Origin: Eledone cirrhosa
Taxonomy: Eukaryota
Reading direction: 5' to 3'
Assembly (NCBI GenBank): GCA_964016885.1
Contig: OZ024741.1
Span: 146,692,001 to 146,756,000, forward strand
DNA length: 64,000 nucleotides
Shown here: positions 3,731 to 58,730 of the stretch, piece after piece
Numbering within the stretch: the first letter of the stretch is position 1
How the letters are laid out: the number at the start of each line of letters is the position of its first letter
Position numbers and translations under genes: made by a program
The notes under the pieces: generated by a model
Told to the model about the DNA's origin: nothing
Seen by the model: the letters and a program-made list of their open reading frames with translations, nothing else
Databases searched by the model: none

Positions 3731-4328
3731 TGTAATAATTGATAAATCAAAAGAAGTTGAATTTAAGATAAAATATTTGTGAATATTTTTATATAAACTA
3801 CTGATTTCTAGCTTAAGAACAAGGAAAAAATGATTTTGTTTCTTTTGATACTTTAGTCAGAGCAAAGAGAATAGTACCGAGGGCATATTTAGAGCTCATT
3901 AGACTGGCTGCAGAAAACAAAGAAAACTCTACATCTGTTGATGCAATAAGATGCAGCAGAAGATATTAACTTTTAATACCAAACTGCCTGAAGCCAACTG
4001 CCTGAAGTTCTATGATACAGAACTATTTGCTTTACAGTATTTATATTTAAAAACCTTCCAGTATAAGGATTTGCAAGAATTTATTTTATATTAAAAAATT
4101 TAGCTTAATTATGATAAAGTTAATAATATTACTAAATTCATCCAAATTCCTGATTATTTTCAAAATTATAGGCAGTGTTCTTCATTAGAAATATGGTAAG
4201 GAAGGTGTTAATTTATCCTCAGAGTATTTTTAAAGCCTAAATTCTTTCAATACAGTAGTGAACTCTGCAAAAGCAACTCAAAGGCCAGCAGATTGTGTTA
4301 AACTGTTATTATTTTATTGAGCATAAAA

Positions 4329-4519
4329 GGGCGGTGGATTGGCAGTATCAGTAGAGCGTCGGACGCCATGCTTTCCAGCATAGTTACGTCCCTTTACGAT
4401 CTGAGTTAAAATCCCGCCGAGGTTGACTTTGCCTTTCATCCTTACGGGATCGATAAAATAAAGTACCAGTAATGCACTGGGTAATTGCTGGCCTTGTGCC
4501 TAAAGTAGAGACAATTATT
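4329..4519 (+). mobile_element. tRNA-derived SINE (family A) with ~18 bp TSD
   Basis: A-box-like TGGCAGTATCAG, B-box-like GAGTTAAAATCC, central 'tttgcctttcatccttacgggatcgataaaataaagtaccag', tail 'ccttgtgcctaaagtagagacaattatt'. TSD attatttt(t)attgagcata on both sides. Confidence 0.88.
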
Positions 4520-5421
4520 TTATTGAGCATAGAGAGATGGAAGGTAAAGTTATCCCTTACAAGGTTTGAAATCAGAAACAAACTAAATATCAAGCCTGTC
4601 ACCAGGCTTTAGTGCTGGGATTTGGGGTTGGGCTTCAGAACATTCTGTGTGAGCATTCTAATTTACAGTAATTCTAAGGTAGAGTTTTGAGATAAAAGTA
4701 GGGAAGCAGTGCCATACAGTGCCCCTATCACCCCACCCTTAGCAAAGGACCAACTAAATACCATTAGGTAATTTGTCTTAGTACACTGTCTACTTTGCCA
4801 TCCTCCACCCAAAATGATTTCTAACATAGGCAGAAGAGCACAAATTCTGGAAAAGAGATGATGGCTTCTTATTTTGTTGATCATGAAAAGATGATAACAG
4901 TGGAATTTAACTCAAGACTTAAAGACATGCAGCTAAATACTTCAAGATGTAAAGACATGCTACTAAATTCTGCAAGGTGTAAAACATGGAATCAAATATT
5001 GCAATATATTTTCTTAAGTGCTCTGAACAGCCAGTTTAGGAGAGCAGTAATTCCGTATAAAACCAGCATGGAAGAGACATTGTCTCTGTGAACCATAATG
5101 AAGGCAGCCCATTTAGAAGAGCCATATAAAAATTGCATGGAGGAGACACAGACTCAAAATAAATACTGGCTGTATAAAAAGGACACTTTAGTCTTGACAG
5201 ACAAACTTTCTAGTGCTGGAAGAAAAATAAAATGCATCCGGTCTACACTGTAAAGTTGTTGGTGATAGGAAAAGCATCCAGCCAGTTAAATCATGCTAAA
5301 ATATGAATAGTTCTGATATGATACACCCTATATAACCTATGCAAGCATGGAAAATCAGTTGTAAATATAATTATGAAGGGTATAAAATAATTCCAATGAA
5401 ATGGAATCTTAGCACTACATA

Positions 5422-6018
5422 TTAACTCATTTGTAAACATATTTCTAATGAAATACATCACCTGTGTTTTTCAATTAATTTTGAAAATATTCAACATTTT
5501 GAGGGAATTTAGTAAAATAACTTATTGTATTATTAAGCTAGTGTTTAGTACATAATTTAACAAACATTTTCCCTATCATTATTGGCGGTGGATTGGCAGT
5601 ATTGGTAGAGGGTTGGATGCCATGCTTTCCAGCATAGTTACATCCCTTTTGCGGTCTGAGTTCAAATTCCGCCGAGGTGAACTTTGCCTTTCATCCTTAA
5701 GGGGTCGATAAAATAAAGTACCAGTAATGTACTGGGTATTTGATGGCCTTGTGCCAAAAGTAGAAACAATTATTGTCTTATCTAGCATAGAGTTACCTCT
5801 CTTTATGACCTGAGTTCAAATCCCGTCGAGGTTAACTTTGCCTTTCATCCTTACGAGGTCGATAAAATAAAGTACCAGTAATGCACTGGGTAATTTATGG
5901 CCTTGTGCCTAAAGTAGAAACAATTATTGTCTTATCTAAAATAGGAATACTTTAAGACAGGAGGTGCATCATGAGAGAAGTAAGGTGGTTTTCACTGGGT
6001 TTGTATCAAAAGGGTTAA
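5422..6018. mobile_element. Degenerate TTAA-flanked MITE-like repeat (piggyBac-like ends), interrupted by two SINEs
   Basis: Ends 'ttaactcatttgtaaac' and 'gtatcaaaagggttaa'. Related AT-rich bodies occur at ~4000-4200, 26930-27480, 52146-52381, 57990-58260 and 58370-58755. Confidence 0.5.
5584..5938 (+). mobile_element. Two tandem family-A SINEs (full-length plus 5'-truncated)
   Basis: Same body as 4329-4519; the second copy is flanked by the direct repeat attattgtcttatcta. Confidence 0.88.
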
Positions 6019-6549: not shown

Positions 6550-6695
6550 AATGGCCAAATGGTTAAGAAGCTCACTTCTCAATCATTAGATCCCATGCTT
6601 GATCCTACTGCATGGAATTTTAGGCAAGTGTCGTTAACTATTGCCTCAGGTCAATCCATGCTTTCAAAGTAAAACTGAGTCAATGGTAACTGTTA
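6550..6695 (+). mobile_element. Degenerate tRNA-derived SINE
   Basis: A-box-like TGGCCAAATGG followed by a 'ggcaagtgtc' core; heavily diverged. Confidence 0.5.
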
Positions 6696-7200: not shown

Positions 7201-7254
7201 TAGTACCAACAATAATTTACTAAAATTGATATTCAATTAAAAAATGAATTTAAT

Positions 7255-8141: not shown

Positions 8142-8169
8142 TACATCAGCTAATTTAACTGATTTTGTC

Positions 8170-12481: not shown

Positions 12482-12672
12482 GGGCGGTGGATTGGCAGTA
12501 TCGGTAGAGAGTTGGACACCATGCTTTGAAGCATAGAGTTACGTCCCTTTATGATATGAGTTCAAATCACGCCGAGGTTAACTTTGCCTTTCATCCTTAT
12601 GGGGTCGATAAAATAAAGTACCAGTAATGTACTGGGTAATTGCTGGCCTTGTGCCTAAAATAGAAACAATTA
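12482..12672 (+). mobile_element. Family-A SINE with 17 bp TSD
   Basis: TSD attatatgtagtacagg at 12467-12483 and 12669-12685; A and B boxes present. Confidence 0.9.
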
Positions 12673-20731: not shown

Positions 20732-22180
20732 CCCATACTTCACTCACAATTCCACATATTCTCATTTGGTCTAACATTTCTTTTCACATTTATATTTATA
20801 ATGCTTCCCTTCCCATTAGCACGATATTTTTAATATGTTATATAATAGTAATACCCTTGTCTCCATTGCATTATTTTATGACACACATGTAACATATTTT
20901 GCTTCTTATTCCCCATTGGCAGCTAAACAATTATATCTTATTTTCAAAATACAATACATCTTTATATATATAGGCATGTGTATGTGTGTGTATTTCTTCA
21001 CTGATAATCTGAAATGCTTATATTTTATCTGTCTTTTATTTTACATTGTAGATATTTTTTTCATATTATCACATAAAATTCATTATTATTAATATTATTA
21101 TTATCGTCATTTTGTTTTATATTTAACTTGAAAGGAATTTATATTCATGATATATTCTGTTTTGATATGTTCAGAGAAAATAGGGATAATTACATATACC
21201 ATAACTCAAACAACAGATTCTTTCAGCTAAATACATTGTATAAACAATGGATTTTTTTTCATCACTACTGCTATTGTAGCTGATGCTGTTGTCATTTTTA
21301 ATTCAGCCCATGGGTATTAGATATGATTTTTTTAAAAAAGCAATTGTAAAAGTTTGCACATAGATTAAATGAATATGTCTACAATATATAAGCCAAAATA
21401 TAAACAGTATGAGTTAACAGATTTTCTTCAGACTTTTAATGAATACAAACTGAGACAGTGTTGTATAGCATGCAACACTGCCTTCTATTCCACTGATAAT
21501 TTTGATTCCTATCATTATAAAACATTCTATACAAATTGCGAAAACTTTTAGCTCAATCACAACAATAAAAATTAGACAAATTTTATACTAGCTGTGTGGT
21601 TAGAAAGTTTACTTCACAACCCTGAGGCTTCAGGTTTGGCCCCACTTGATATGTAAACTTAGAGGTAACATATATTTTATTGCATTGTATTAGATGTATG
21701 CTTAAAAATATTGCAAGTTTCATAGGTATACTTGGTAATGACATGTATTTTCCATTATAAGGACTAGCAGAAAAATTACCCTTTGTGCAGTGTACATATT
21801 GATATTATACACATGTGGATATGATATGTTAAATAAAATCCTAATTGACAATATGCACAGAAATTGAAGAGAGACTATGTTACACTCTCTTCTGTAATCA
21901 ATAAAGTAATCCATGATACATTTAAAAAAGACGATATTATGGCAAAATTTTATGAAAACGTTAAAGAAGAAAATTAGCGACAGAAATATAAACCATATAT
22001 AACGATGCAAATATATGAACGTTTACATAAGTGATGTAATAAGTGTAGACATTTGAAACTTTTAAAAGAAGTGAATCTTAAAATAAGCAATCATTATATA
22101 TAAGAATATTTATGTTTAATCAACAGCTACGAAATTTAGTACATAAATTGTGTAATATTCATTGATTATTTATTTAAAGT

Positions 22181-22662
22181 GGCGGTGGATTGGCAGTATC
22201 GGTAGAGGGTCGGACGCCATGCTGTGCAGCACAGTTACGTCCCTTTACGTATTGATTTCAAATCCCACCGAGGTTAACTTTGCCTTTCATCCTTACGGGG
22301 TCGATAAAATAAAGTACCAGTAATACACTGGGATAATTGCTGGCCTTGTGCCAAAAGTAGAAACAATTATTTATTTAAAGTGGTCGATAAAATAAAGTAC
22401 CAGTAAAACACTGAATAATTGCTGGCCTTGTGCCAAAAGTAGAAACAATTATTTATTTAAAGTGGTGGATTGGCAGTATCGGTAGAGGGTCTGACGCCAT
22501 GCTTTGCAGCAAAGAGTTACGGCCCTTTATGGTCTGAGTTCAAATTCTGCCGAGGTTAACTTTGCCTTTCATCCTTACGAGGTCGATAAAATAAAGTACC
22601 AGTAATGTACTGGGTAATTTCTGGCCTTGTGCCAAATGTAGAAACAATTATTTATTTAAAGT
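22181..22662 (+). mobile_element. Three tandem family-A SINEs (full, 5'-truncated, near-full)
   Basis: The 16-mer attatttatttaaagt occurs at 22165, 22366, 22448 and 22647, bracketing every copy. Confidence 0.92.
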
Positions 22663-22819
22663 AATCTAACTTATTCTACTAACAGGATACAAAAATATAT
22701 TCAGGACGCAGTATGGACATACTGTTACGTCTCATCATCAGTCTTGAAAGTGCATTTCCAGAATTGTAGTTACCTTCAGTGTTTATATTCTTTTTCTGCA
22801 CCCACTTATTCCTGAGATA

Positions 22820-25909: not shown

Positions 25910-26665
25910 CTGTGAGTAGAGCAGCATATGCTTTGTGTCATTTACTTACGTCCCTTTATGTTCTGAGTTCAAATCCTGAGGAAGTCAATTTTGCCTTTTA
26001 TCATTCTAAGGTTGATAGTTGATAAAATATTGTGTAATCAACTTTACCCTCCCACAAGTTTGTTGGCCTTATGCCTATGTTAGAATCAATTATTAAAGAG
26101 TATGGTAAATTGACAATATTGGTAAAGCATCAGACAAAATATTTTGCTATTTAATTACATCTTTTTACATTCTGAGTTCAAATCCTGCTGAGGTCAATTT
26201 TCATCGATTCAAGGTCAATAAAATAAAGTACCAGTCAAGTATAAGGGCCAATATAATTAACTTTACCTTTCAACCACAAAGTGCTGGATTTGTGTCTAAA
26301 TTAGAAATCAATAATATGAACCTGTGTATTTGAGTGTGAGTGTGTGTGTATGAGTGTGTGTGTGTGTGTGTGTATTTGTGTTTCACTATGTGTCTTAGCA
26401 ATAATCATTAAAACATTTTCAGATTACATTAATAATAATAATAATGATAATACTCCTTCTTCTTATTATTATTGGATTGGCAGTATCGATAGAGTGTCGG
26501 ACAACATGCTTTGTGGCATATTGTTATGGCTGTTTACGTTCTGAGTTCAAATCTTATGGAGGTTAGCTTTGCCTTATATGATTGATAAAATATAGCACCA
26601 ATAATGCATTGGGGTTGATTAATCGACTTTCCTCTCCCCCCAAAAATTGTTGGCCTTGTGCTATT
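25910..26665 (+). mobile_element. Three diverged family-A-like SINEs
   Basis: 'ttctgagttcaaatc' B box, core remnants and 'ccttgtg/ccttatg...agaatcaattatt' tails. Confidence 0.7.
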
Positions 26666-34579: not shown

Positions 34580-34797
34580 ATTTGTTCTACTTTAAACACA
34601 AGGCCAGCAATTTGAAGGGGAGGGAAAGTTGATTAAATTGACCCTAATGCATTATTGGTGCTTTATTTTATCGACCCCATAAGGATGAAAGGCAAAGCTA
34701 ACTTTGGCAGGATTTGAACTCAGAACATAAAGGGCCGTAACTCAATACCACGAAGCATGGTAACGACAGTCTACCAATGCTGCCAATTCACTGCCCT
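34580..34797 (-). mobile_element. Family-A SINE
   Basis: Head 'gggcagtgaattggcagc', B box gagttcaaatcc, core, tail 'ccttgtgtttaaagtagaacaaattatt'. Confidence 0.85.
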
Positions 34798-34821: not shown

Positions 34822-37092
34822 GGTTTCTTTATTGGCCACAAGGGCTAACATGAAGAAAAACGTTACAGATGGCACAGAACTGTTCAGGATGATACAAAAT
34901 GGCTTTTGGCCGTGTAAAAAGGTTATAACAAGATAGAAATCAAAAAAATTCAAACAACAAAATTTCCCCAAAAAGGAGGAAACCTCCGAGGGTCACTCGT
35001 GGCGAAAACCACACAAATGATCGCAGCCACCCTGACCACCAGGGCAAGCGCCTTCTCTCAGTTTTCCCACTCCTCAGTCTACAGGCACATACTCAGAGCG
35101 GGCCCATTCACTCTAACCAGACTTGCCACTTTCACCCACCTTTCAACAAACTTACTAGAAGACAGCACTTGCCTCTCCATCCTGATTTTCCTCTTCAAGA
35201 GAAACTTGAAAAAGTTAATCAGGGATTGGCCGGAGAGGAATGTGTCCGTCTTCAATCCTTTCAACCTTGTCCACCATACAATCTCTTTCACCATGGCCAC
35301 CAGGCAGATGAAAAAGGAGGCTGGCGGGTTATCTGCACAATGGACTCAGTCAATAATCGGATCCATCCTATACGGGATAGAAACTGTTTGACATAGCCGC
35401 ACAAGTCAGCAATTCTCGGGCACTGGATGAGTGCATGCAGGATGGTTTCGTCACCCTGCGCACATCTCGGACAGGCTTGGCTGACAGCACCTCTGTGCCT
35501 GTAGAGATTATCCCGAACTGGCAATGCTCCCTGGTAGCACTGCCAGGCCAGGGATTTCTGTAAGTTGACCATAGGCCCCGGGCTGAAAGTTCTCTTGAAG
35601 AGAGCGAACAGCTGATCGTCTTCAACGCCCAGGGTCTCCCTTCCACTATCCCTCTATAGAACGCCAAGGTGGATGTTCTACCGATATCAGTGCCCAGCTG
35701 GTAGAGGGCGGTGAAAGCTTCCAAGCATTATCCCTCGGTATTTTCCTGATCCAGGACTGCACCTCCGTCAAGGAGACGAGCTGCAGAAAAGCACGTCTGG
35801 CAAACGGCAACCACAGCTGTTCACCATCAAGGAAGCACCAGAGATGCGCAGCCTCAGCGCATGTTTGCGCATCATCAGCCACGGCTTGCCCAGTCCTCCA
35901 CGTAATGGGTGCTGACAGCAGATAGATCGTCTGACCATGGGAGCACATCCCTTCCACAAAAAGCAGAAGAGAAGGTGCTCTATTTGGGTCAGAGTTGGGT
36001 GGGGGCAAGGTACGACGGTCACGCGGTGGCAGATGATGGACGCGATGTATGCATTCACCATCTCCGCCCGACCTTTCAGACACAGCCTACTCTGCTCGTC
36101 ACCTCGTTTCAGTTTTTCTCCATCTGGAGGTCCTCAGTGAGTGCGATTTTGCTTCCTGGGTGGTAGCAAAAAGGACGTCCACGGTAGCATATTTCTTGCC
36201 TCGGGTGATGTGGGTTTTCCATGTCCACTCAGTTCCCAAAGTCTTCTGGATTTGAGCCTCTGTGGCTCTCTCCACATGCCGTGATTTCGTGGCAATCGTG
36301 CAGTATGACATTGTGCCTCGCTCTTGTTCCTCCAGGAAGTCGGTTGGTGGTTTCAAGGACACACTGAAAATTCAGTTCTGGTTACCATGTGTCTTGTGAC
36401 CACCATCTCCTCCTCTGTGACAAGACTGTTTCTACGTTGTGAGCCATCTTTGCAAAAGAGATGGTCCCTTTTTCAGTGGCATCATTGTTGCCACCGTTAC
36501 TGCTGCTACTAGTCTTGTTGTTGGTGCTGTTGCTGTTGCTACTTCTACAAATGATGTTGTTGCTGTTGTTGCTGTTATCACTGTTGCAGTTGGTTGTGTC
36601 TTTGGTGCCGCCGTTGGTGTTGTTCTCGGTACAATTTATATTGTTGCTGTTGTATTTGTTGTCATTTTTTCTGTTGTCTGTATTTTGGTTGTCGCTGTAA
36701 CTGTTGTGGTTGGTGTGGTCATTTTTTTTCCGAAATTAGTATTCTCGGTGTTGTTGTCATTGCTGTCTTTGTTCACGTTGCTTGTGGTGGTGTTTGTTGT
36801 ATCACTTTCTGTGTTTGCCGTAACCCTTCTCTCAATTTTTATGGTTGTTGTCACATGACAGTAGATATATCGCTGGGGGCTTGACTCAGCCATGTTTTTT
36901 TTCCCGATAATTTTTAAGTGTAAAAAGTTCAAATATTGAGGCTAAAAAGCCCAAATATTATATTTTCCCCTTCACAGGGCAAAGTCCAAGGGCTTATATC
37001 CCTTACACAACAATAAAATTTAACAATAAATAATTTATGACAGGTAAATAAAGAGACTTCTGAAAGCGAGAAAAAAGACGTTCGATCAGACC
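34822..37092 (-). mobile_element. Internally deleted Tx1-clade LINE (both ends intact, APE and RT lost) with TSD gt(aat)5
   Basis: ORF1 start MAESS at ~36893 and an RRM-like stretch homologous to 42000-42200, fused at ~36130 to post-RT ORF2 ending in CPRCAQGDETILHALIQC. TSD at 34799-34815 and 37094-37110. Confidence 0.88.
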
Positions 37093-37110
37093 AGTAATAA
37101 TAATAATAAT

Positions 37111-37160
37111 TGTTCTACTTTTGGCACAAGACCAGCAATTATCCCAGTGTATTACTGGTA
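37111..37160 (-). mobile_element. 3'-terminal fragment of a family-A SINE
   Basis: taccagtaatacactgggataattgctggtcttgtgccaaaagtagaacaattatt on the minus strand. Confidence 0.85.
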
Positions 37161-37436
37161 AAAATAATAATAACAATAATAATAATGCTTTCTTTATTAA
37201 CCACAAGGGTCTACATAAAGTAGACATTAAGGACAGTACAGGACAATACAGGGCGGTACAAATGGGCATTTCTGCGTGTAAAAAACAAGAAACAGAGGAT
37301 GTAATAATAGAACAATGAAAAAATTCCCCAATAGGGGGGAGACTTCCGAGGGACATTCGTGGAGAAAGCTCATTAAAAAGCCACAGTGACCCTGACCACC
37401 AGGCCAAGTGCCCTTTCCCAGTTTTTCACCTTTAAT

Positions 37437-40400
37437 TTACAGACACATACTCAGAGTAGGCCCATTCACTCGGGCCATTCTTGCCTCTCTCACCCATCTT
37501 TCAACAAAATGCTGGGAAGAGAGGACTTCCCTCTCTACCCTGATTTTCCTTTTCAAATAAAATTTGAAAAACTTAATCAGGGCATCACCGAAGAGGTAAG
37601 TGCTCGTCTTCAGCCATTTCAAACGTGTCCACCATACTATCTCTTTCGCCATGGCCACCAGACAGATAAAAAGTGCCTGCCATTCCCGGCTAAAGGAAGA
37701 GGGCGGGGAAATCCTCACGATGGACTCAGCTGATAGCTGGATCCGTCCTACACGCGACAGCAGGTGTTCGACATAAACCCACAAGTCAGCAATGCTCGGA
37801 CACTGGACGAGTGCTTGCAGGACGGTTTCGTCGCCCTGCGCGCATCTCGGACATGCCCGGCTGACGGCACCTCCATGCCTGTAGAGTTTATCCCGGACTG
37901 GCAAAGCTCCTCGGTAGCACTGCCAGGCCAGAGATTTCTGGAAGTTGTCCATAGGCCCCGGCCCGAAAGTTCTTCCGAAGAGATTGGCTATTTGATTTTC
38001 GTCGACGACTAGAGTTTCCCCAAGTACGTCGTCGCCCTTCCCCTCCACTAATCCTCTATAGAACGCCAAGGTGGAGTTTCCACCGATCACATTGCTCGAT
38101 TGGTCGAGGGCTGTGAGCGCCTGAAGACATTCCAGTCTCCAAGCGCTCCCTCTCGGTCTTCGCTTGACTCAGGACTGCAGCTCCGTCAAGGAGACGAGCT
38201 GGGGAAAGACGCGTCTAGCAAACGGTGACCACACCTGATCACCGTCGAGGAAGAGGTGGAGATGTCGTAGCCTGAGCGCGTGTCTGCGCATCATTAGCCA
38301 CGGCATGCCCAGCCCTCCACGTAGCGGGTGTTGACAGCAGATGGACCGCCTGGCCATCGGAGCGCGTCCCTTCCACAAAAAGCGAAAGAACAAACGCTCC
38401 AGTGCAATCAGGCGGGGCTTAGGACAAGGTACGACGGTCAGGCGGTAGTAGATGACGGACGCGATGCACGCGTTAGCTACCTCCGCTCGACCTTTCAGAG
38501 ATAGCTTCCTCTCCGCCCATTTCTGTGTGAAAAAAGCCACCCTGCTCGTCACTTCGTCCCAATTTTTGTCCGTCTGGAGGTCCGGACCGAACCAGACCCC
38601 TAGCAATTTAACCGGTCCGTCTGTCCAGCGCCCGACGACGCTGTTGGACGGCATGGACCTGCCTCTCCAGGTGCCGAGCTGCACGCCCACTGACTTTTCC
38701 TGGTTGATCATTGCTCCTGTCACCGCTTCGTATTATCTTAGTGTAGTGCCGATCGCCTCGATGTGTTTGGCGTTCGACACCACTACGGTGACATCGTCCG
38801 CATATGCTGACACGGATCTTCCTCATCCTAGTTCGCGCAGGACCCCCCTCAACGTCTCCAGTTTGTGCAGTAATGGCTCGAGAGTTAATACGTACAAGAG
38901 GGACGAGAGGGGACATCCTTGGCGGACCGAGCGCATGATGTTGAACGGTTCCAAAAGGTGACCGTTCACTTTCACCACAGAGCAGATGTCGCTGTGCATG
39001 GCAGCGACCCAGCCTCTGAAGACGGGCCCAAAGCCAGCCGCCCTCAGGACTGCCGCTAGGTAACGATGGTCGACCCTATCGAAAGCTTTCGACTGATCTA
39101 AATTGATCAAGGACCCACCCGTGCCAGGTTCCCTAGCTACCCTCTCTACGATGTATCGCATGAGGTGGAGGTTGTCGTGGATGGATCTGTCGGGAATGGC
39201 GCATGTCTGCGCCTCTCCCACCAGACCACCAACGACAAGCGCCAACCTCTTTGCTAGCACCTTCGCCAAAATCTTGAACTCTGTGTTTAGCAGAGTTATG
39301 GGCCTAACATTATCTATGTTATCCCCCTTGTTCGGATCCTTTCTCAGGAGCTCCACAGCTCCTCGGCTCACAGAGCTGGGAACTCTCCCGTTCTGTTGCC
39401 AGTTGCAATAGACGTCCGCCAAGAGGCCTCCGAACAAGTCTGGCATCTGTACGTAAAGTTCATAGGGCAGACCTACCAAACCAGGCGATTTACCCCTTTT
39501 GCAGCCAGTCATTGCCTCCCGTACTTCAGCGGCTGTTAACGGCTTTTCGCAACACTCCGCCTCAGTGGCCGAGAGCCGCGGCAGTCCGTCGAGGTAGACA
39601 CTAAAGTCCATCCCTCAATCCGGCCCGCCGCTGCCCCCGAACAGCTGTGCGAAGTGTCGCTGACAAGCTTCACACATTTGCCCGAGATCGAGTAGCATGC
39701 ACCACTCGTGGTCCACCAAAGACCGGATCGTGGCTTTGTTGCCACGACGCGCCTCCGCTACTCGGGCCCATTGAACGGCTTTCGTCCCCTCGTGTCTGAG
39801 AGCACGCACGCTAGCTATGACAACGCAGCCTTCCAACTAGTTCTCCCTCTGCTCTATTTTTCTCTATTGCTAAAGCCTTACTAAACCTAATGGACTCTAT
39901 TCTAATGGCTCTTTTCAGAGCAAACCACCACTTGTTGTTGACGATGGCCCCCGTCAACGCCCGCTTTACTAGTTCGCTAATCCGGTCTCTGTATGCCTTG
40001 CGCGCTGGTAAGGACGCGTTTAGCTTCCAGTAGCCGGGTCCTCGTCTATGAAGCCTATCTAAATCAAGAACACAGATCACGAATTTGTGGTCCGTGTAGC
40101 TGACTATTTTGAATTGTGGACAGCCTATGCTAGACCTATCTATTTCCCTACAAAATACTCTATCTAGATATGATATGGATGACCCTATGCGATTTGTCCA
40201 AGTCCACATTGGCACATTAGGGAAATACAATCGGTACCTGTCAGACAGTTCAAAACGCCTGAGCAGTTGGTGAGGCTCTTGCACCCTCCTCCCCTATCCG
40301 CTAATCCCACACTGTCCCAGCGTGCATCTAAGATCCTGTTCCAGTCGCCCATTAACATTAAAGAGCGGGCGTTCCAAGAAAGGTCTCCAGACGCCGGAAG

Positions 40401-40765
40401 AAATCAGGCCGCCCTGCTCCTGTCGGGGCATAGACGGCCACTAGCCTGAAAGCTTGCCCGTCTCCGATGGTCACGTCCAGCACCACCAACTTACCCTCTG
40501 GGTCCAGGAAGATGGCCCGTATGGCGAGATCCAAACCTCTCCGAAAAAGCACAGCAACTCCTCCCCCCGATCCCGGACGACTGGGAGATGTGTACACATC
40601 GTAGCCGCCGAAGATCGGTGCGAAGGCCCGTGCTTCGAAGATTCTGGTCTCGCTGATGGCCACTACATCTCTGTTTAGTGACCTGAGGTCGTTGAGCAGG
40701 TGGCCCTGCTTCCATGACGACCCCAAGCCACGCGCATTTATGCTGCCTATTCTGAGTGAGGTCAT
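37437..40765 (-). pseudogene. Tx1 ORF2 (APE-RT-zinc finger), broken by stops and frameshifts
   Basis: IGSINARGL, ISET, VYAP, YLDR, YTDH, GPGYWKLNASL, KSPG, RPITLLNTEFKILAK, LDQSKAFDRV, RQGCPLS, AYADD, CPRC..ET...ALVQC. Confidence 0.93.
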
Positions 40766-40808
40766 GTTGAAATGGAGTGGAAAAGATGGGAAAGACCACT
40801 TACCTTAC

Positions 40809-42699
40809 TTATCGTAGAGGAAGGATGGTTTCTCCATCCTTTTCACTGCTTCTGGCCTCCTCCGGAAGGATGTCCTCATAAATCCCCCTGGAGAGTGCTT
40901 GTCGGAAGTCTCCGATGTCTTCGGGGAATTTTTGTTTTAGTGTCGTGTACGTTTTCTGTGTGATGCGAGTGATTTGTATGTGTGGAGGTGGTGTGAACTT
41001 TTGGGTTGCTGTGTAGTCTTTTTCTGTGATGCTGGTGTTGTGTTGGATGTAGTGTAATAATTGGTTGTTCAAATTTATTGCTGTGTAGTGTGTATTGTTT
41101 TGGTTGTTTTGTTTGCGTTTGTTGTGGGTTTGTTTCTGTTTCGCTTGTTGGTGACTTTTGTGGTGTTGGTGATGGTGGTGTTGGGGTTAATGATGGTGAT
41201 GGTGTTGGTGTTTGTGGTGATGGGGTTGGTGATGCTGGTGTGGATGGTGGCATAGCTGTCCTAACTTTTTTGTTTGATAGTTTATTTGTTTCCCTCTGTA
41301 TTTTGTTTTTGGAGGGGGAAGGAAGGGGATTTTTTTCTTTTTTGGTTTCTTTTTCTTTTTTTCTTTTTTTCTGATACCGTTTCCCACTCCTCGTCGTCAC
41401 AATCTGTCTCCAGTTGCGATAGGTCGGGGACTGGAAAATCCTCCACAGGCGTTGGTTTTGGTTGTGGCGTGGTCGATGGTGTAGGCGCTGGTGCTAGTTC
41501 TGGCGCGTTGGGTGGTGGTGGTGTTGGTTTCGCTACTGTTGTTGGGGTTGTTGCTGCCATTTCTGCTGCTTGTTGTGTTGATGGTTGACTCACTGGGGTG
41601 GGTAAGAGAGGTGGCCTCAACCTTTTAGCCTGAGGGCAGAAAGCCCTTAGGTGGGTTCCTTCACCACAAACGACGCACCTAGGCCTTCTGCCCTCGACGA
41701 TTACGGTGAGGTGGCTGCCGTCAGTGAGGTCTATTACCTCTGGGATCTCCTCAATACTTTTTTGGTCCGCTTGGATCAGGAGCACCATCCCAGATCCGGA
41801 CCAGTTCTCCTGCTTTTCTTTCGCTATTTCGATTATCTTGGTGTTGGCTTCGATGCCGGCGAGGACGGCAGCCATTAGCCAGGGAATTTCGATGGCCGGT
41901 GGAACGTGGGTCACCCTGATCTTTACGATTCTCTGGCCACAATAGCTTGGGACGAGTGTGAAGTCATCACTTCTTAATGAGGGCATGGAGTGTTCTCTGG
42001 CCTCCTGTTGTGTTTCAAAGAACACGTCCACGGTTCCATATTTTTGCCCACGTTTGATGTGAGTTTTTTTCGCCCACACATGTCCCAAAGCTTTTTGGAT
42101 TTGGGACTCGGATGCCCGTTCCACTCGGCGCGATTTCATGTTAATCGTCCGATAAGACACGGTGCATAGGCGCCTATGCTCCATTTTATTAGGTGGGCGG
42201 TGAGGCTGACCCTGAACCCATCTTTCTTTACCATTTGTTTGGCTTCTTCTAATTCCTCCTGAGTTACCCGGAATGCTTCGCACTGTTTTGCTACTCTGGC
42301 AAAAGACAGGGTTGTTTTCTTAATTTCATTGTTGCTGTTGTTGTTATCGTTATTTTTGTTATTGTTAATTTTAGTTTCAGTTGTGGTGGTGGTGGCGTCA
42401 GTGGTGTTCGGTGTGGAAGAGTTCATTTTGGCTGAATTCGTTCCGATATCACGAGATAATTTATTTTTTTCTTTTGTTTCTGTTGTCGCTGTGCTGTTGG
42501 TGGGGGTGGCGGCTTCAACACCTGCAGTCATTGGTAATGGCGGGAAATGAATGTCTGCCTGAGACAAATTTAAAATATTGCTACTGCTTATATTTTTAGT
42601 GTTGGCAAACGTAGTAATATTTACAATGGTGATGTCGATGTGATGTGTTAGTTTGTGAGGAAGGCTCTCAGCTACTGGGTTCAGCTGTGAGTCGGCCAT
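40809..42699 (-). pseudogene. Tx1 ORF1 (gag-like: RRM-like region, CCHC knuckle, Pro/Thr-rich tail), frameshifted
   Basis: Start MADSQ; knuckle CVVCGEGTHLRAFC (CX2CX4HX4C); frame changes near 42195, 41370 and 41070. Confidence 0.85.
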
Positions 42700-42913
42700 G
42701 ATTTTTCAAAGAAATTTTTTTTTTGTTTGATAATTATAAAAGTTTAAATTTTGGGCTCAAGGCCCCGATATCTTTTAGTGTCCTTTTCAGAAAACAATGT
42801 ATGTGCACTTATATACAGTTAACAATAAAAATCTTCCAATAATGGCAATTTTAAACAACTGAAAATGACAAACCTTTGCGGAGCTCACAATACGATTTAC
42901 TACGTAGGTCGCC

Positions 42914-42945
<32 letters not shown>

Positions 42946-42947
<2 letters not shown>

Positions 42948-44766
42948 GATAGACTACAGAAAGGCATTTGACATGGTGCCTCATTCTTGGATCACCAAAA
43001 GCCAGGAGATCTTCAAGGTGGCAGATAACATCAGACAGTTGTTGGGCAAAAGTATGAGGTCCTGGGAAACAGAGTTGACATCAACTGGAGAATCCTTGGG
43101 AAGCGTGAAGATCAAGAGAGGTATCTTCCAGGGAGATAGCCTGTCCCCTCTGTTGTTTGTCCTTTCCCTGATGCCCCTGACCAGTGTACTGCGAAAAGTG
43201 AGAGCAGGATACAGGTTGGGAAAGGGAGGGCTTGCCATCAATCACCTCCTCTTCATGGACGATCTTAAGCTCTTCGGGAAGAGTGAGAAGGAGTTGGATG
43301 TCCTTGTTGACACTGTCCGTATTTTCAGCAGTGATATATGTATGCAATTTGGTATTAGTAAGTGTGGAGTCATTGTGATGAGGAGAGGTAGGTTGAGCAG
43401 AAGTAACGGAATCCAGATACCAACAGGTGAGGTGATAAAGGAAATTGACTCTGAGGAAGGATACAAGTATTTGGGCGTTCTGGAGGCTGATGGCATAAAG
43501 AACAAAAAAATGAAGGAATTGTTAAGAACTGAATACATTCGGAGAATAAGGAGCGTATTGAAGTCACATCTGAACAGCAGAAATGCCATAAGCGCAGTAA
43601 ATTCCCGAGCTGTGTCTATTATTAGGTACAGTGCGGGAATTCTGAGATGGAATGTTGCTGAACAAAAAGAAATGGATAGGAAGACTAGGCAGCTATTGAC
43701 TATCTACAACATGTTCCACAAGAGGAGTGATGTCGATAGACTCTACTTAAGGAGATCTGAGGGTGGAAGAGGTCTTATCAGCATAGAGGACTGTGTTCAG
43801 ATGGAGAAAAACAACCTACACAAATACGTGACTGATAGTAAGGAACCAATGCTCAGAACTGTACTGAAGGAGGGGACAATAGGCCAGGGGATGTCCAAGG
43901 AGGAAATAACATCAAGGAGAAAGAGCAGCGTTCAGGAAAAATCCCTTCATAGTACCTTCTTTGAGAAAACTGAATTTAGAGATCCACAGACATGGAACTG
44001 GTTGAGAAGAGGAGACCTTAAAAAGGCTACAGAAGGAATGTTAATGGCTGCGCAGGAGCAGGCCCTCAAAACGAAGTGGTTGAAACACCATATTTACAAG
44101 GAGGAGGCTAGCCCACTGTGCAGGATCTGTGGAGAGAGAGAGGAGACTGTGGCTCACATTGTATCCGAGTGTAAACACCTAGTCCAGACCCACTATAAGG
44201 GCTGGAGACATGATGTGATGGGCAGGGTGATCCACTGGCACCTGTGCAAAGTAAACAATTTACCACACTCTGAGAAATGGTATGAGCATAAGCCAGAGGC
44301 GGTGATAGAGAACGATCAGGTGAAGGTGCTGTGGGATTTTAGGATACAGACGGACAAGAAACTGGAACACAATAGACCTGACCTGGTGGTTGTGGACAAA
44401 GAAAAAAGATCGTGCCTGATTGTGGATGTGGCCTGCCCATTCGACACGAGAGTGCAAGAGAAGGAGAGGGAGAAAATTAACCGATACCAGAACTTAAAGT
44501 GGGAGGTAAAAAGGATTTGGAACTGCCATGAAGTCAAAGTGATCCCGATTGTCATAGGCGCACTGGGGACTATCTCCAAAAGTTTCCAGGGATGGTTAAA
44601 GAAAATTGGCCCCTTCACGCTTTTTGGAACGCTTCAAAAGGCATGCTTGCTGGGAACAGCAAGAACCCTCCGATACGTCCTGAATATCTGAGGCTGCAGG
44701 TAGTGGCTTGATATTCATTCCAACAAACTTTCCAGTTAACTAACATCAATGACTGAGACTCAAGGA
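42946..44766 (+). mobile_element. 5'-truncated R4/Dong-type LINE (RT plus restriction-like endonuclease) in (AAT)n
   Basis: Begins at WIDYRKAFD directly after (aat)n; ends in a (taa)n tail at 44767-44821. Confidence 0.93.
42947..44691 (+). CDS. R4/Dong-type RT-RLE ORF, uninterrupted from the truncation point
   Basis: GIFQGDSLSPLLF, LFMDD, YKYLG, GGRGL, CRIC..ETVAHIVSEC, RHD, RPD..D, EKINRY. Confidence 0.93.
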
Positions 44767-44774
44767 GTAATAAC

Positions 44775-44821
<47 letters not shown>

Positions 44822-44822
<1 letters not shown>

Positions 44823-47800
44823 GAAAACCCGTGACCAAGAAATACCGGGATGGCGGCCGGCGGGGAATAGCCGTGTCTCTAGGGGAGGACGACCCCTCTA
44901 GTCTTGTTTGACACTCGTCCTAGAAGTGGTAACACGAAATGATTACCCCTTGGTGGATAAGGATAAAATGCGACAAAATAAAGTAAATGTCTAATGATAA
45001 AATCTCATACCGGATCGGCCGTCACCCGGGTCAAAAAGGGCCGCGTCCCTCAGAGAGGAACCAGACTGAGGTCGAAAAATCAGCTAATGGTTCGGAGCTG
45101 GAGACCTCCCATAACCGGAATACTCCTACTGTTGGTCCTCCATGCTCACCACCAAGAAATCCAAAGAAAAAGAGAGAAAAATGGTCAAGGGAAGATAATA
45201 AAGAAGTCCTTGAGGCTTTCTACACTGCCATGCACTACCCATCAAATACATCGAATACAGAACAGACATATATCAACTGAAAAAAGAAACATCCCGAAAA
45301 CAGAGGCTATATTGACAGTAACAAACTAGCCAATATACGAAGAAATATTGTAAAAAAAAAGTTACTAACTGATATAGAAATTGATCAGATCAAGCTATTA
45401 GCACAAAGTCAGCGAAGGGAAAATGAAACATGTGTCAGTGAAAACGAGATAAATTGTAACACTTCGAATCCCACGGTTGGGGCAGAATCACTGACAACAG
45501 AACAAATTAAAGAAAGGATTGAAAAAGTGGCGGGAGTGCATACTCAAGATGAAACTCCAAATGAAAACAATGAGATCGTAAATGATAAAGAAATGAATGA
45601 GAATAAACTTGCTAACTTGAAGGATAAAATTATGATCGAATGGATGAAGATGAAAGAATCTGACATGGGGGAACGAGACACCCTCCCTAAGATCCAGAAC
45701 TCCAAACAGAACCAAAAGATAATACACAAGACTAACATAATTCTTTAAAAACATTATCATCACAAACAAACTAAACATTACTGATTTAAATCATCTCTAT
45801 TATGCATCGGTTAAAGTCACCACTCACTTATGTGGAGTGAAGATGAAAACCAAAGAAATTCCCACAAAAAATCTACTTGGCAAGAGAACATCAATCGCCA
45901 AATAAACCTTCTCCGATCTGACATAGAAATTTTAACAAACTATAAAGTAGGTGAACATGTTAAACAAACTAAACTTAGAAAATTGAAAAGAAAGTACAGT
46001 ATAAAATCAACAAGTGACATAGACATGCTGATAGAAATAATCAAGCAAAAAGTGTCGGCCAAAGCTGCTCGTATAAGGCGCTTTGAAAAACGATCTAGAT
46101 TCTATAAGGACAATAATATGTTCAAAAACAACCAAAGAAACTTCTACAGAAAAATTGGTAAGTCAACAATAACTGCTAAATCAATACCACCCAAGGAGGA
46201 AGTGCAAGAATTCTGGGAAAAGATCTGGGTCGAAGAAAAAACTCATATTATACATGCCCCATGGATAGACAGACAAATGAAAGATACACCTCACTTTGAG
46301 GAACAAATATAACAGTTGAACAGTTGCGTTTGGCTCTAAGAAAAACCAGCAAATGGAAATCCCCAGGAAAAGACAAAATACAAAATTTTTGGATAAATGC
46401 CTTCACAGAGTCTCATGAGCTGTTAGCCCAACTTTACAATGAAATAGTTAAGGAGCGAGAAAACATACCTTCATGGCTAGTTAACAGCATTACATTCCTG
46501 CTTCAGAAGAATGATGAGACAAACAATCCCAAAAATTACAGACCGATAACTTGCTTGACCACAATGTATAAAATTTTGACATCAGTCCTAACTGAATATA
46601 CATATGACCACCTGATAACAAATGACCTATTTCCCATTGAGCAGAAAGGGTGTAAACGAGGCTCATATGGCTGTAAGGATCAGCTTTTGGTTAACAAAAT
46701 GATACTGGAAGATTGTCATAATAGACACAAAAATCTATCAATTGCTTGGATAGATTATAAAAAAACATTCGATAGTTTGCCACACAGTTGGATTGAAAAA
46801 TGTTTAGAGATTTTCAAAATATCTCCCGTTGTCAGGAGGTTTTTGTCATTCAGTATGAAGACATGGAAAACGACACTCCTTTTGAATAGTGAAACAAAAT
46901 CACTGGAAGCTGGAGAAGATAATATTAATTGTGGAATTTTTCAGGGTGACTCTTTATCACCGCTTTTATTCTGCATCGCACTTATACCATTAAGTAAAAT
47001 GCTCAATGAAACAAACCATGGGTATAAAGTCTATGACAAAACCATTAATCACTTGTTCTACATGGATGACCTGAAACTATTTGCAAAAAAATGATGAACA
47101 ATTGCAAGGGCTATTATCTACTGTGGAGCAGTTCAGTGATGACATTAAAATGGAGTTTGGACTAGATAAATGCGCCAAAGCAACGTTCACCAGAGGAAAG
47201 CTGCTGAAGAGTTCAGACATTAATCTTGATCGGGGGAATGTGATAAGAGAACTTGATCAAGAGGAAACTGACAAATATCTAGGTGTTTGTGAAGGAGACG
47301 GAATCAAGCACTCGACAATGAGGGAAAGGATAAGGAAGGAATGTTACCGCAGAGTAAGAGCAATCTTAAGAACGGAATTGAATGCAAGGAATAGGATCGA
47401 TACCATAAACACGCTTGCCATACCATTAGTAACCTACAGTTACAATGTCATCAACTGGTCAAGCACAGAGATCCGTAGGCTCGATACAAAAATTCGAAAA
47501 TTCTTAACCATGCACAAAATGCATCACCCTAAGGCAGATACAGATAGAATATATCTCCCTAGGAAAGAAGGAGGATGTGGGTTAATCCAGTTAGACATTG
47601 CGTTGAAAACTGCAACAATTGGATTATCTACATATCTAAGGGAATCACATGATTGGATGATCAAACTCATTTTGAAACACGAAAGCATCAAAAGATCATA
47701 CTCCATTACAAAAGATGCACAAAGATTCAGTAATGGACTACAAATTTCAGAAGTCCCATTTACTGCTGAAATGGAAAACACAGAAAAAGCAAAGCAGGTA

Positions 47801-48757
47801 AAAGTAACTGCAAAGAAAGAACTGCTACAGAAGCTGGCTAAGAAATGGCAAGAAAAGCCTCTGTATGGAAAATACCCAGAACGAGCTAACAATCCTGATG
47901 TTGACAAAACTTTAACCCATCAGTGGTTGGCATCCTCTGGACTGAAATCGGAGACTGAAGGACTGATTATATCAGCACAAGATCAGTGTCTGCCAACAAA
48001 AAATTACCAAGCCAACATAATAAAAAATGGATGCAGCCCATTATGCCATGTATGTAAAAAACAACCAGAGACCATTGACCATATAATTTCAATGTGCAAT
48101 CCTATAGCGCCAACCGAATACCTAAACAGGCATGACAGAGCTGCACAATACATACATTGGATAATGTGTAAGCGTTTTGACCTGCCCCATCAAAAGAATT
48201 GGTGGGAGCATCAACCACCTCCCATACTCGAAAAAGATCACATCGCAATCTTGTGGAAATTTAGCATCCAAACAGACCGAAAAATAGATGCAAATAGACC
48301 TGATATAATATTGAAGGAATTTAAAAAGAGGGTATGCCTGCTAATTGATATGTCTGTTCCAATAGACAAGAATGTATCTACAAAAACATTTGAAAAATTG
48401 AGCAAGTATAAGGACCTGGAGATAGAAATTGGAAAAATGTGGAAATTGAGAACTAAATCAATACCAGTGGTTGTAGGCACTCTAGGAATGATACCTAAGG
48501 GGTCTAATGATTACTTATCACAAATCCCAGGAAACCCGCGTATAGGAGAAATACAAAAGATAGTACTAATGGGAACTGCCCATATACTAAGGAAGATTCT
48601 GTCAATATAAGTACATCACAAGTCTAAACACCTAAAGATGCATGTGCGAGTATGTATGTTCTTTCTTGAACATGGCGGACCTTGTTGTCTCTTGAGGTCA
48701 CTGGTTGTGACTTGGTGATAACTCGTATGAACATAAAGCAAGATAAATGCAGCTGTA
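44822..48757 (+). mobile_element. Full-length R4/Dong-type LINE in (AAT)n with a disrupted single ORF (44987-48610)
   Basis: Myb-like KWSREDN, KSPGKD, NYRPITCL, WIDYKKTFD, FYMDD, CHVC..ETIDHIISMC, RHD, RPD..D; several stops and frameshifts; (taa)n tail at 48758-48819. Confidence 0.93.
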
Positions 48758-54900: not shown

Positions 54901-55282
54901 AATTGGAGCCCTTTAAAATGGATGGTTTTATTTCATATCAACAGGGTTGAAACATGCAAAACAAGACTAAATGAATTTTAATTATACATAAAAATATTGG
55001 ATCCAGAATCACCCTGTGTTAGTGCTATTACTAATTAATAGTAGATGGAGAAGCTTGCAATATATGTAAACAAGCTTTTAACAATAATAGTTTGTTTAAA
55101 GATTTATAAAATTTTACTGTCTTCTTTACCTAAGCAAATGCCTGATTCCAAAGTAACTATGACATCATCACAGCTTAAAATACTCACAGAGAAATTAAAT
55201 ATATGTTTAGTATGCATTTACACCTTTTATCTAAATCATGTGGTGTTAATAATATTACTAATGCATTATTACCAATATAAAC

Positions 55283-57506
55283 TGTGATATTGTCGGGGAG
55301 AAGTGTGTACTTAATGATGACGGCGTACTTGCCATCACCGACGCTGATAAGAAGGTAGCTTGGAAGTGTCACTATGAAAGGCTACTAAATGAGGAGAATA
55401 AATGGGAGAAAGACAGTCTCCCCCACATCGACCCAATAGAGGGACCAGCAGTGTTAGTCGAGGGTAGTATAATAAGTAAGGCAATCAAGGATATGAAGAC
55501 GGGTAAGGCGGCTGGGCCTTCGGAAATAGTTGCTGAGATGCTGAAGGCATCTGGCACGGTGGGACACACCTTGGTCACCCGGAGAGTTAACCAAGTCGTA
55601 CAGAATGGGGTTGTTCCGAAGGACTGGCATAGCAGCATCATCGTTAACTGTTATAAGGGTAAAGGAGATGCCCTAGATAGGAGTAACTATAGAGGCATTA
55701 AATTAATCGACCAGGTCATGAGGGTCACGGAAAAAGTAATAGCGCAACTAATCAGAGAGAGAATTGACCTAGATGAAATGCAGTTCGGGTTTGTGTCAGG
55801 CAAAAGTACCACAGACGCTCTTTTCATTGTACGTCAACTACAGGAGAAGTACCTAGCTAAAGGTAAACCCCTCTACTTAGCTTTTGTCGACTTGGAGAAA
55901 GCCTTCGACAGAGTCCCCCGTTCCATTATCTGGTGGGCCCTTAGAAAACTAGGTGTCGACAAATGGCTTGTGAGGGCTATACAAGCCATGTATAAAGAAA
56001 CAGTCAGCAAGGTTAGAATTAACAACGAATATAGTGAAGAGTTTAGCGTAAAAGTTGGCGTCCATCAGGGCTCTGTTCTCAGCCCGCTACTATTTATTAT
56101 TGCCCTTCAGGCTATAACAGAGGAGTTCAAGACCGGCTGCCCATGGGAACTCCTATACGCAGACGACCTGACACTCATAGCTGAATCAATGGCCGAGCTA
56201 GAGAAGAAATTCCAAACATGGAAGCACGGCCTAGAATCAAAAGGCCTTAAAATTAACCTGGCTAAGACTAAAGTTCTAGTTTGTAGGAAAGAAAATAAGG
56301 CGCCGGTCCCTTCTGGGAAATGGCCATGCTCAGTGTGTAGGAAAGGTGTAGGTAGAAACTCCATTTTATGTCCCAAATGCAAAGTATGGGTGCATAAAAG
56401 ATGTAGTGGGATCACAGGTAAGCTAACTAAGAACTTAGATTTTACATGTGGGCGGTGCTCTGGTGCAATAAGTAGCAGCGAGTGCCCACAAAATACTAAC
56501 TCTTTCAATTGCGCAGAGGGCTCTATAGAAATAGTGGACAGCTTCCGTTACCTGGGTGACAAAATCAGCAGTGGGGGAGGGTGCTCCGAAAGTACAGTAG
56601 CTAGAGTCAGAACTGGATGGAAAAAGTTCAGAGAGCTTATACCACTATTAGCCGCTAAAGGGTTCTCCCTAAAAATGAAAGGCAGGTTGTATGATGCCTG
56701 CATACGAACAGCAATGTTGCATGGCAGTGAGACCTGGGCATTGTGTGCAGAGTATATACGCAGAATAGAGAGGAACGAAGCTTGCATGCTCCGCTGGATG
56801 TGTAATAGTAATATACGTGAACGGCAAAGCATAAACGAACTAAGGAAAAAATTAGAAATAAGAGGGATCAGATGTTGTTTACTCGAGAGAAGGCTACGTT
56901 GGTACGGACACGTGATGCGCATGAAAGTCGATAGCTGTATAACAAAGTGCAGGGCAATAAAGATAGACAGTAGCCACGGAATAGGCAGACCTAGAAAATC
57001 CTGGGACGAGCTGATAAACTCCGACCTCACACACTTACACCTCTCCAAGACAATGTCACTGGACCGAGACCTTTGGCGGTACTCAGTAATAGAGAAGACC
57101 CGCCTTACCTAAATACATAGTAAAACCTACTACAGCCAGTAGGCATCTCTAACAAAATACACCCCCGTCCCACCACCCACACCCCATCCACACCACCCCC
57201 TCCTATGTAAAGTTATGTTGGTGCCACAACATCCAGGCCGAAACAAATGAGATCGTGTAGGTGTCACGACAAAAAAACACACAGTCCACGCTGTAATGTG
57301 GCCGTGTAGGCAACACGGTAAAAACCTCCCAGTCCCACACTGTAAATGTGGTTGGTGTTAGGAAGGGCATCCAACTGTAGAAAACCTGCCAGACAGTCCT
57401 ATGCGAGCAAGACAATCACTCTTGCCTCAAGTGGGAATACCCCCGTCCAAACCCATGCAAGCGTGGAACACGGACGTTAAACGTTGATGATGATGATGAT
57501 GATGAT
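55283..57506 (+). mobile_element. 5'-truncated RTE-clade LINE with open RT-PHD frame (55283-57112), 3' UTR and (GAT)n tail
   Basis: CDIVGEKC... continues in frame into the 553 aa ORF; same motifs as 8476-10548 with many synonymous differences. Confidence 0.95.
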
Positions 57507-58552
57507 ACTGTATATCTGGTTATGCAATGTTCTTAAAAGAAACTTTCAGCCTTTAGGATGAAGTCTTAATTATAGATTTAGTATCATTATTCTGAGCTAT
57601 TATTTTGACCTGCTATTTGTAGCATATTTTAGTTTCGTCTGTAATACTGATGCCTAAAGAAAGTGTTAGAGTTGTAATTATCTTTTCTTGGCTGTTTTGA
57701 GGTTATTGACTGAAATAGAACACTATATCATAAATGTTATGGAGTTTAAGAGTGTATTGTAGTTTGTTTGAAGTATTGTGTAAAGTATAGAAAATAATTT
57801 TAAAATGGCAGCATACGAATAACAATATATTCTATTCTGAATTATTTTCCTCAATTTTTCTTTTGGTGAAGGAATTTTATCCAGAAATATAACAACTTTT
57901 AAGTAACTCTAAGTTAAGGTTCCAGCATTTATTATCATTAACATTTAATATTCTATCTGCATTGACATAGCCTTCTAATAAAATGCACCATTTGTGCAGT
58001 TTGTTTCAATTAACAGCTTTTATTCCAAACAACCACTGGATCTATGATACAAAACTGTTGGTTTTAAAGTGTTCACATTTTAATTAAAAACCATTCATCA
58101 TAATTTTATTGAAGAGTTTTATGTTAAGTAATGTTCCAAACATCAGATTACTAAAGTAAAGAGTTATTTTACTAAATTCTGAAAAAAGTTGATTATTTCC
58201 AAAATTGATTGAAACACATTGGTAGTGTTTTCCATTAGAAATATAGTAATGAAACAGTTCTATCTTGAAAGTCTTAAGGTTTTCTATTGTACACTTATTC
58301 CATTAAAAAGAACATTGTTGTTATAGTTGTATCATTTGTCAATTTGAATAATGAAAATGTAGGTGTTTGATCAACCCATCCACAATCACCTCTGGTTTAT
58401 GAAACAAAACCACCAAATGTGAAGGATTCCAGTTTAAATTAAAATCTTTCAATATTGTTTGATAAGAACCTCTTGTTAAGTTATGTGTTATTATCATAAT
58501 AATAAAATATTTCCTAAATTTAGTAAATCTCTTCAAAATACATCATTAATTA

Positions 58553-58730
58553 TCGGTGGACTGGCGGTATCGGTAGAGGGTCAGACGCCATGCTTTGCAG
58601 CATAAAGTTACTGCCCTTTAATTCTACTGAGGTTTACTTTGCCTTTTATCTTTATGGGGTCGATAAAATAAAGCACCAGTAATATACTGGGATAATTGCT
58701 GGCCTTGTGCCAAAAGTAGAAACAATTATT
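58553..58730 (+). mobile_element. Family-A SINE
   Basis: Same head, core and 'ccttgtgccaaaagtagaaacaattatt' tail. Confidence 0.85.

Follow-up and report, generated by a model that had tools for sequence, protein, structure and literature searches.

The stretch of Eledone cirrhosa DNA analyzed here (GenBank assembly GCA_964016885.1, contig OZ024741.1, positions 146,692,001 to 146,756,000 of the forward strand; hereafter the window, 64,000 nucleotides (nt) in all) contains copies of a short interspersed element (SINE), family A, and of a Tx1-type long interspersed element (LINE). An earlier note on this DNA had proposed that the LINE mobilizes the SINE. That proposal is supported: their tails match, their target-site duplications (TSDs) are alike, and in one host repeat both have inserted at an identical base.

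The family-A SINE is about 185 nt long with a tRNA-like head, and an older, longer variant is also present. A full-length copy at 4329..4513 (plus strand) comprises a tRNA-like head with A and B boxes, a body and a tail with a predicted hairpin, GGC-CTTGT-GCC, at 4490-4500; its 18-bp TSD, ATTATTTTATTGAGCATA, lies at 4308..4325 (plus) and 4514-4531. The copy at 5584..5768 (plus) has only a 7-nt flanking repeat, and at its tail sits a 5′-truncated SINE (5785..5922, plus) with a 16-bp TSD at 5769-5784 and 5923-5938. A further copy at 12484..12668 (plus) is bounded by a 17-nt TSD (12467-12483 and 12669-12685). Three SINEs, full, truncated and full, are stacked at 22165..22663 (plus) with the same 16-nt TSD between copies, at a hot-spot base of a host repeat that is elsewhere also used by Tx1. 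Degraded, older and longer-tailed relatives lie at 26473..26660 (plus), and an older copy at 58554..58725 (plus) has no recognizable TSD. The earlier note had every clear SINE TSD starting with ATTAT and measuring 16-18 nt. Start and length hold at 4308 (18), 5769 (16), 12467 (17) and 22165 (16-18), which form a selected subset given the copies at 5584 and 58554; the TSD at 5769 is that of the second, truncated copy, and in the longer values 2 nt fall within the leading GG of the SINE.

Exact family-A tails number 124,785 in this 3.0-Gb genome. The tail motif was matched 67 times in 60 evenly spaced 10-kb samples (52 SINE-class, 8 Tx1 and 7 unassigned), and one of the 52 proved on inspection to be a 26-nt Tx1 stub. 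The copies are short, non-coding, dispersed and partly 5′-truncated, with TSDs, as tRNA-derived SINEs are. Their head carries A and B boxes; two heads of the short form can be aligned with tRNA-like genes of the genome, the best alignment scoring above all of 200 shuffles, and the older long head aligns more weakly. The head itself was not called by Rfam or ARAGORN. Rfam matched only flanking simple repeats in five SINE loci and gave no small nuclear RNA match for the head, and a U1/U2-derived head was not encountered. A tRNA-Lys motif was without match, so we claim no parent tRNA. The family may resemble the OK SINE and have a Nin-like body; octopus OK, OR1 and OR2 SINEs were reportedly described by Ohshima and Okada in 1994. 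Near-identical tRNA-like copies with varying anticodons (L336, L338-L346; L-numbers label loci fetched from the genome outside the window) probably belong to another tRNA-derived repeat family.

The Tx1-type LINE at 37187..42913 (minus) is full-length but frameshifted, with a 5′ untranslated region (UTR), open reading frames (ORFs) 1 and 2 and a tail of subfamily T1. Its ORF2 encodes an apurinic/apyrimidinic (AP) endonuclease, a reverse transcriptase (RT) and a zf-RVT domain, and its tail contains the hairpin GACC-CTTGT-GGTT and AATAAA. An internally deleted Tx1 derivative at 34822..37093 (minus) has a second type of 5′ end and a T2 tail with the hairpin GCC-CTTGT-GGC. As the earlier note observed, SINEs in this array are oriented as the Tx1 copies: a 51-nt 5′-truncated SINE at 37111..37161 (minus) lies in the ATT tract between both of them, and the longer, older SINE variant occupies 34581..34797 (minus), just behind the ATT tract of the derivative. 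The repeat (att)5ac that the note read as a 17-bp TSD does surround the derivative (37093-34822); it sits inside a microsatellite, so its length is ambiguous and weak as evidence. An (ATT)11 tract at 42914..42946 is common to the 5′ end of the full-length Tx1 element (minus) and to a second kind of LINE (plus), two copies of which, from two families that we take to be Dong/R4-like, extend over 42947..48757 (plus) and target that microsatellite from the other strand.

Pfam Exo_endo_phos, RVT_1 and zf-RVT were matched in the window Tx1 element and in L220, and ORF1 frames are present without a Pfam match. In phmmer searches the RT scored 159-183 bits against three proteins annotated YTX2 or TX1 149 kDa, which are database names, and 98-100 bits, below the Tx1-annotated scores, against LINE-1 ORF2p entries of the PDB; the best named match came from Argonauta hians (74%). 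An RT tree placed the window sequence in a seven-row clade (100/100) that forms an open polytomy with the Tx1-named clade, in a tree lacking a true L1 outgroup, so the label Tx1 is based on these scores, on the architecture and on the target specificity. The ESM Atlas returned only generic RT clusters for the LINE protein, a protein cluster look-up gave no Tx1 names, and no relatives were found in metagenome contigs.

Genome-wide, 15,553 exact Tx1 3′ ends and 2,049 exact copies of a Tx1 5′-UTR motif, the look-alike of the SINE tail described below, were counted. There are at least three tail subfamilies (T1-T3), which keep the terminal motif and are about 73-84% identical in the 3′ sequence upstream of it. 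Five of 150 zf-RVT matches lay in frames longer than 1,000 amino acids, and the repaired ORF2 that the earlier note envisaged for a trans-mobilization assay is not needed. All 30 intact Tx1 5′ ends directly follow ATT, in register. Most follow long pure (ATT)n, with at least four units in 22 of 24 (L304-L333), and among truncated copies whose TSD can be read the ATT stretch is often short (L141-L240). Transcripts may include the upstream ATT, which may then help to direct 5′ joining. A second recurrent target (L141, L219, L229, L095) is the (ATT/GTT)n 3′ end of another LINE family, where differently truncated Tx1 copies have inserted at one base.

The shared tail and its predicted hairpin

The last ~24 nt of the SINE match the 3′ ends of the three Tx1-type subfamilies at 12-18 of 24 nt, where the background averages 7.3-8.0. 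The likeness that the earlier note saw between the SINE tail (~5747-5775) and the two Tx1 ends of the window (34844-34822 and 37209-37187, minus) was thereby confirmed. Anchored at ATTATT, four SINE tails agree with T1 at 14-16, with T2 at 16-18 and with T3 at 12-13 of 24 positions. The background was taken from 1,014 random 24-mers upstream of ATTATT; 6-8 of these reach 16/24 and are probably degraded SINEs. The same SINE tails reach 4-8/24 with Dong and 5-6/24 with RTE, and two of them reach 8/24 with CR1, and no sampled LINE family gave the better match that would have pointed away from Tx1.

The shared segment coincides with a predicted hairpin of 11-13 nt with a CUUGU loop, 16-17 nt before ATTATT. 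Its stems read GGC/GCC in the SINE, GCC/GGC in T2 and T3, and ACC/GGU in T1. The changes are compensatory: at pair 2 the SINEs have G-C where the LINEs have C-G, and at pair 3 T1 alone has A-U in place of G-C. In each of five groups of copies (n=26-200, with the loop fixed by the search), pairs 1-3 are kept by 85-100% of members. The covariation score was 0.461 for 99 sampled tails, 50 of them distinct (100 were drawn and one was dropped as a mis-oriented match), a value that none of 500 shuffles equaled and that exceeded the slid controls (at most 0.239). The LINE tail carries AATAAA and the SINE does not, and no poly(A) followed any of the tails inspected.

Insertion sites of SINE and LINE

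One TSD algorithm, with a cut-off of at least 10 nt, was applied to three sets of copies. Among the best SINE copies, selected by a query biased to ATTATTT sites, 24 of 30 had such a TSD (median 18). Random SINE copies gave 19 of 39, with 12 non-simple duplications of median 17, and Tx1 copies gave 20 of 50, with 14 non-simple, likewise of median 17. Tx1 copies were selected to have a 3′ flank other than a microsatellite, and four of 54 were dropped where the 5′ junction was not reached. Mismatched-flank controls yielded non-simple TSDs of this length in 2-5%. TSDs of SINE and Tx1 are thus alike in length (Mann-Whitney p=0.51; both about 17 bp) and in their ATTAT start, the comparison that the earlier note had proposed, and the preceding base is mostly C or T in both. 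ATTAT occurs within 30 nt upstream of 31 of 46 random SINE heads (background 6%), so the motif belongs to the target as well as to the tail.

An unclassified host repeat (window 21800-22700; L094, L103, L231, L299) has a single hot-spot base, with 2,584 exact empty copies in the genome. SINEs with different 5′ ends have entered at this base (L005, L017, L024, L119, L245 and window 22165), and so have three Tx1 copies (L350-352). The full SINEs at L005, L017 and L024 and the Tx1 copies carry an identical 18-bp duplication, with one mismatch in L351. The idea that Tx1 adds ATT units on insertion, which would mask it at the hot spot, was tried and gave no match for either Tx1 or SINE.

Across ATT tracts of the fetched loci, adjacent SINE and Tx1 copies are co-oriented in 48 of 54 pairs, and Dong lies tail-to-tail with Tx1 or SINE in the opposite orientation in all 40 adjacent pairs. 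The two elements are also nested in each other: TSDs of Tx1 stubs at L143 and L221 take in bases of a SINE head, and at L317 a SINE lies inside a Tx1 5′ UTR with a 16-nt TSD. Divergence overlaps, at 2-17% for the SINE (median 6.1, n=38) and 1-29% for T1 (median 3.8, n=43). Reciprocal nesting and overlapping divergence indicate co-activity of SINE and Tx1.

Site use nevertheless differs. At least four ATT units follow 11,297 of 15,553 Tx1 ends (73%) and 11,585 of 124,785 SINE ends (9%). The earlier suggestion that the SINE inherits the target preference of its partner thus holds in part: what passes to the SINE is the ATTAT core with the TSD length, without the strong preference for long (ATT)n. 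A single endonuclease cutting at ATTAT could serve both elements, with the length of RNA-primer pairing setting the difference.

Mechanism and rival partners

Taken together, the common predicted hairpin, insertion motif and ~17-bp duplication make it likely that the SINE is copied in trans by the Tx1 ORF2 protein (ORF2p). RNA polymerase III would transcribe the SINE from its tRNA-like A and B boxes, and ORF2p would bind the 3-4-bp stem and CUUGU loop, 16-17 nt before AUUAUU, in a stringent mode of recognition without poly(A). The AP endonuclease would nick the bottom strand opposite Y|ATTAT, the freed AATAAT-3′ end would pair with AUUAU of the RNA and prime reverse transcription, and a second nick 16-19 nt downstream would produce the TSD. 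The short AUUAU(U) end may open thousands of isolated ATTAT sites to the SINE, with the LINE mostly on long (ATT)n. A SINE could then take over the cut site of a LINE specific for a microsatellite and, with ATTAT as its sole requirement, still spread through the whole genome. Such an assignment would also give one of this genome's most abundant repeats a likely driver.

Several observations weigh against this reading. The stretch common to SINE and Tx1 is only ~24 nt long, and the Tx1 5′ UTR matches the SINE tail at 15-18/24, as well as the Tx1 3′ end does. The fourth stem pair of the SINE is formed in only 52% and 17% of copies, and the covariation rests on about three independent changes, in a structure picked from the same sequences. 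Folding energy lent the hairpin no significant support: of eight single tails only one folded better than its shuffles (z from +1.09 to -2.06), and one SINE tail prefers another fold. To these add the disparity in long ATT tracts described above and the hot-spot tails, 1,740 for the SINE against three for Tx1, a SINE count that may be inflated by tandem stacks and by co-amplification with the host repeat. Finally, the LINE survey covered 600 kb in evenly spaced samples, only 0.02% of the genome, together with targeted searches, and the 3′ end of several RT fragments could not be defined.

The main rival is a looser, unsampled Tx1 subfamily. More broadly, the partner might be a different L1-group family, unsampled or extinct, with the same hairpin and a looser endonuclease, and with T1-T3 as its relatives. 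This would fit a SINE that is far less bound to long ATT tracts than T1-T3, lacks AATAAA and has pair 2 in the opposite orientation. We consider it improbable, as all 30 zf-RVT loci matched T1 or T2 3′ regions, the readable ends were all of T1-T3 type, and the isolated sites of the SINE are also entered, with the same TSD, by truncated Tx1 copies. A search for a LINE whose tail is nearer to that of the SINE and carries AATAAA gave 13 genome matches, all of them SINE copies. If Tx1 is the partner, there is still some chance, though a rather small one, that its enzyme reads only the AUU repeat in a relaxed mode and that the hairpin likeness reflects ancestry or drift. The weak folding energy, the few independent compensatory events and the similar hairpin with variable loop in the 5′ UTR agree with this idea. 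It is at odds with the loop and pairing kept across Tx1 subfamilies that are otherwise only ~73-84% identical in their 3′ regions, and with the hairpin-less, ATT-tailed CR1 elements, whose RNA would likewise end in AUU repeats and which show no Tx1-type long TSD in unique flanks (30 loci).

That abundant CR1 family could itself be put forward as the partner, given its 8,217 exact tails followed by ATT repeats and the CR1, L2 or Crack partners of Deu and Nin SINEs in the covered part of PMC3747384. Its tail identity of 8/24 is at background level and its hairpin differs; its junction repeats in unique flanks are 4-8 nt long and do not start with ATTAT, the longer ones being due to internal tandem duplication of the element's own end; and it has no match at the host-repeat hot spot. 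By these measures a CR1 partner is largely refuted and very improbable. The Dong/R4-like elements target the same microsatellite and have tracts in common with SINE and Tx1 in the window and in the genome, but they lie on the opposite strand in every adjacent pair, end in (TAA)n and match the SINE tail poorly; orientation and tail refute them, leaving a negligible chance. An RTE partner was rejected on its tail.

The look-alike of the SINE tail in the Tx1 5′ UTR was unexpected. At 42730..42766 (minus), ~150 nt into the UTR and ~45 nt before the ORF1 ATG, GGGC-CTTG(A/T)-GCCC is followed by AAAATTTAAAC and an ATT-like stretch. The second Tx1 5′-end type has a hairpin with a different loop at the same place. 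All 30 loci fetched with the motif (L304-L333) lie in a Tx1 5′ end; 28 continue towards the ORF1 start, and of the other two one is interrupted by a SINE and one has diverged. The sequence had no match among RNA families, and as a stand-alone SINE ending in (ATT)n it gave no exact match. Capture of a tail, a second site for ORF2p or convergence may account for it. We tentatively entertain, at somewhat less than even chances, an animal L1-group LINE that recognizes a hairpin strictly instead of poly(A), carries a hairpin-plus-ATT module at both RNA ends and drives a SINE of more than 125,000 copies. ORF2p might then bind both ends of its RNA, or the 5′ UTR might be a captured tail. Were this so, the stringent state that has been proposed for ancestral L1 would still exist in this element.

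Other repeats were recorded in passing. The CR1 family (L353-L382; L121:4800-5900) brings its own (ATT)n run, into whose tail SINEs later insert. At window 8167-11277 and 55262-57500 lie LINEs that we infer to be RTE-like, with a PHD finger just after the RT and (GAT)n tails, and with many short copies of their 3′ end. A tandem array at 58866-59742 consists of 18 copies of a 48-nt unit from the RTE-like 3′ UTR. Near-identical tandem arrays with units of ~506 and ~513 nt occupy 61309-64000 and 1849-3244, and 60694-61309 is an inverted copy of the former. A 1.2-kb LINE sequence is duplicated at 1-1241 and 9991-11231 with 99.8% identity.

Comparison with known systems

No report of this SINE/Tx1 pair was found in the literature covered, which includes parts of PMC4758252, PMC4824008, PMC5786205 and PMC5804259; Repbase, Dfam, SINEBase, subscription papers and most supplements fell outside that coverage and could hold an assignment. 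In Octopus vulgaris, SINEs make up 11.6% of the genome and L1-Tx1, CR1, RTE and Dong have been recently active, with no SINE/Tx1 pairing in the passages covered (PMC13282606). Deu- and Nin-domain SINEs have published partners among CR1, L2 or Crack, not Tx1, and the covered part of the SINE/LINE pair table lists no Tx1 partner (PMC3747384).

A close parallel in an animal is SINEU of crocodilians, whose mobilization by Tx1-Mar was deduced from common targets (PMC4494074). As here, SINE and Tx1 LINE have a target in common, tandem copies sandwich one TSD and activity was concurrent. SINEU differs in having U1/U2 heads and in targeting a Mariner element, and no Repbase LINE was significantly similar to the 3′ half of SINEU-1 (PMC4494074). 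The family-A SINE has instead a tRNA-like head, an ATTAT/(ATT)n target and a tail hairpin in common with its LINE. The Tx1 families Kibi, specific for (TC)n, and Koshi, for (TTC)n, and the crocodilian families for (TTCC)n or (TTTC)n resemble the present LINE as AP-endonuclease elements that enter microsatellites in register and form tandem arrays. The passages covered describe no SINE partner for them (PMC4494074), and the target here is (ATT)n.

Common 3′ ends of L1-clade LINEs and SINEs are known from maize (ZmSINE2/3 with LINE1-1_ZM) and Chlamydomonas (SINEX-3_CR with L1-1_CR) (PMC3472496). In the maize pair, as in the present one, the hairpin keeps its loop and its stem varies in a compensatory way; the maize pair belongs to the stringent type. 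The plant and algal pairs have ~50-80 nt in common, and the algal pair ends in poly(A) (PMC3472496); the present pair is animal, of the Tx1 lineage and target-specific, with ~24 nt in common and no poly(A). A hairpin just upstream of a short terminal repeat is also typical of the stringent L2 systems UnaL2/UnaSINE1, ZfL2-1 and ZfL2-2, in which ORF2p reads the stem generally and the loop specifically, with binding shown experimentally (PMC4176376). In contrast, the element described here has an L1-group enzyme and long TSDs, and its hairpin binding is what we infer from sequence.

Tx1-driven SINEs and stringent L1-clade pairs are thus each known, and the literature covered held no animal case that combines the two. 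Ohshima, who counted just three L1-clade-tailed SINEs, none of them outside plants and algae, proposed stringent recognition as the ancestral state of L1 (PMC3472496). Hayashi et al. named the change from stringent to relaxed recognition as an open question (PMC4176376). With a compact hairpin, natural compensatory variants and long open ORF2 frames, the animal Tx1/SINE pair of E. cirrhosa makes that question directly testable.

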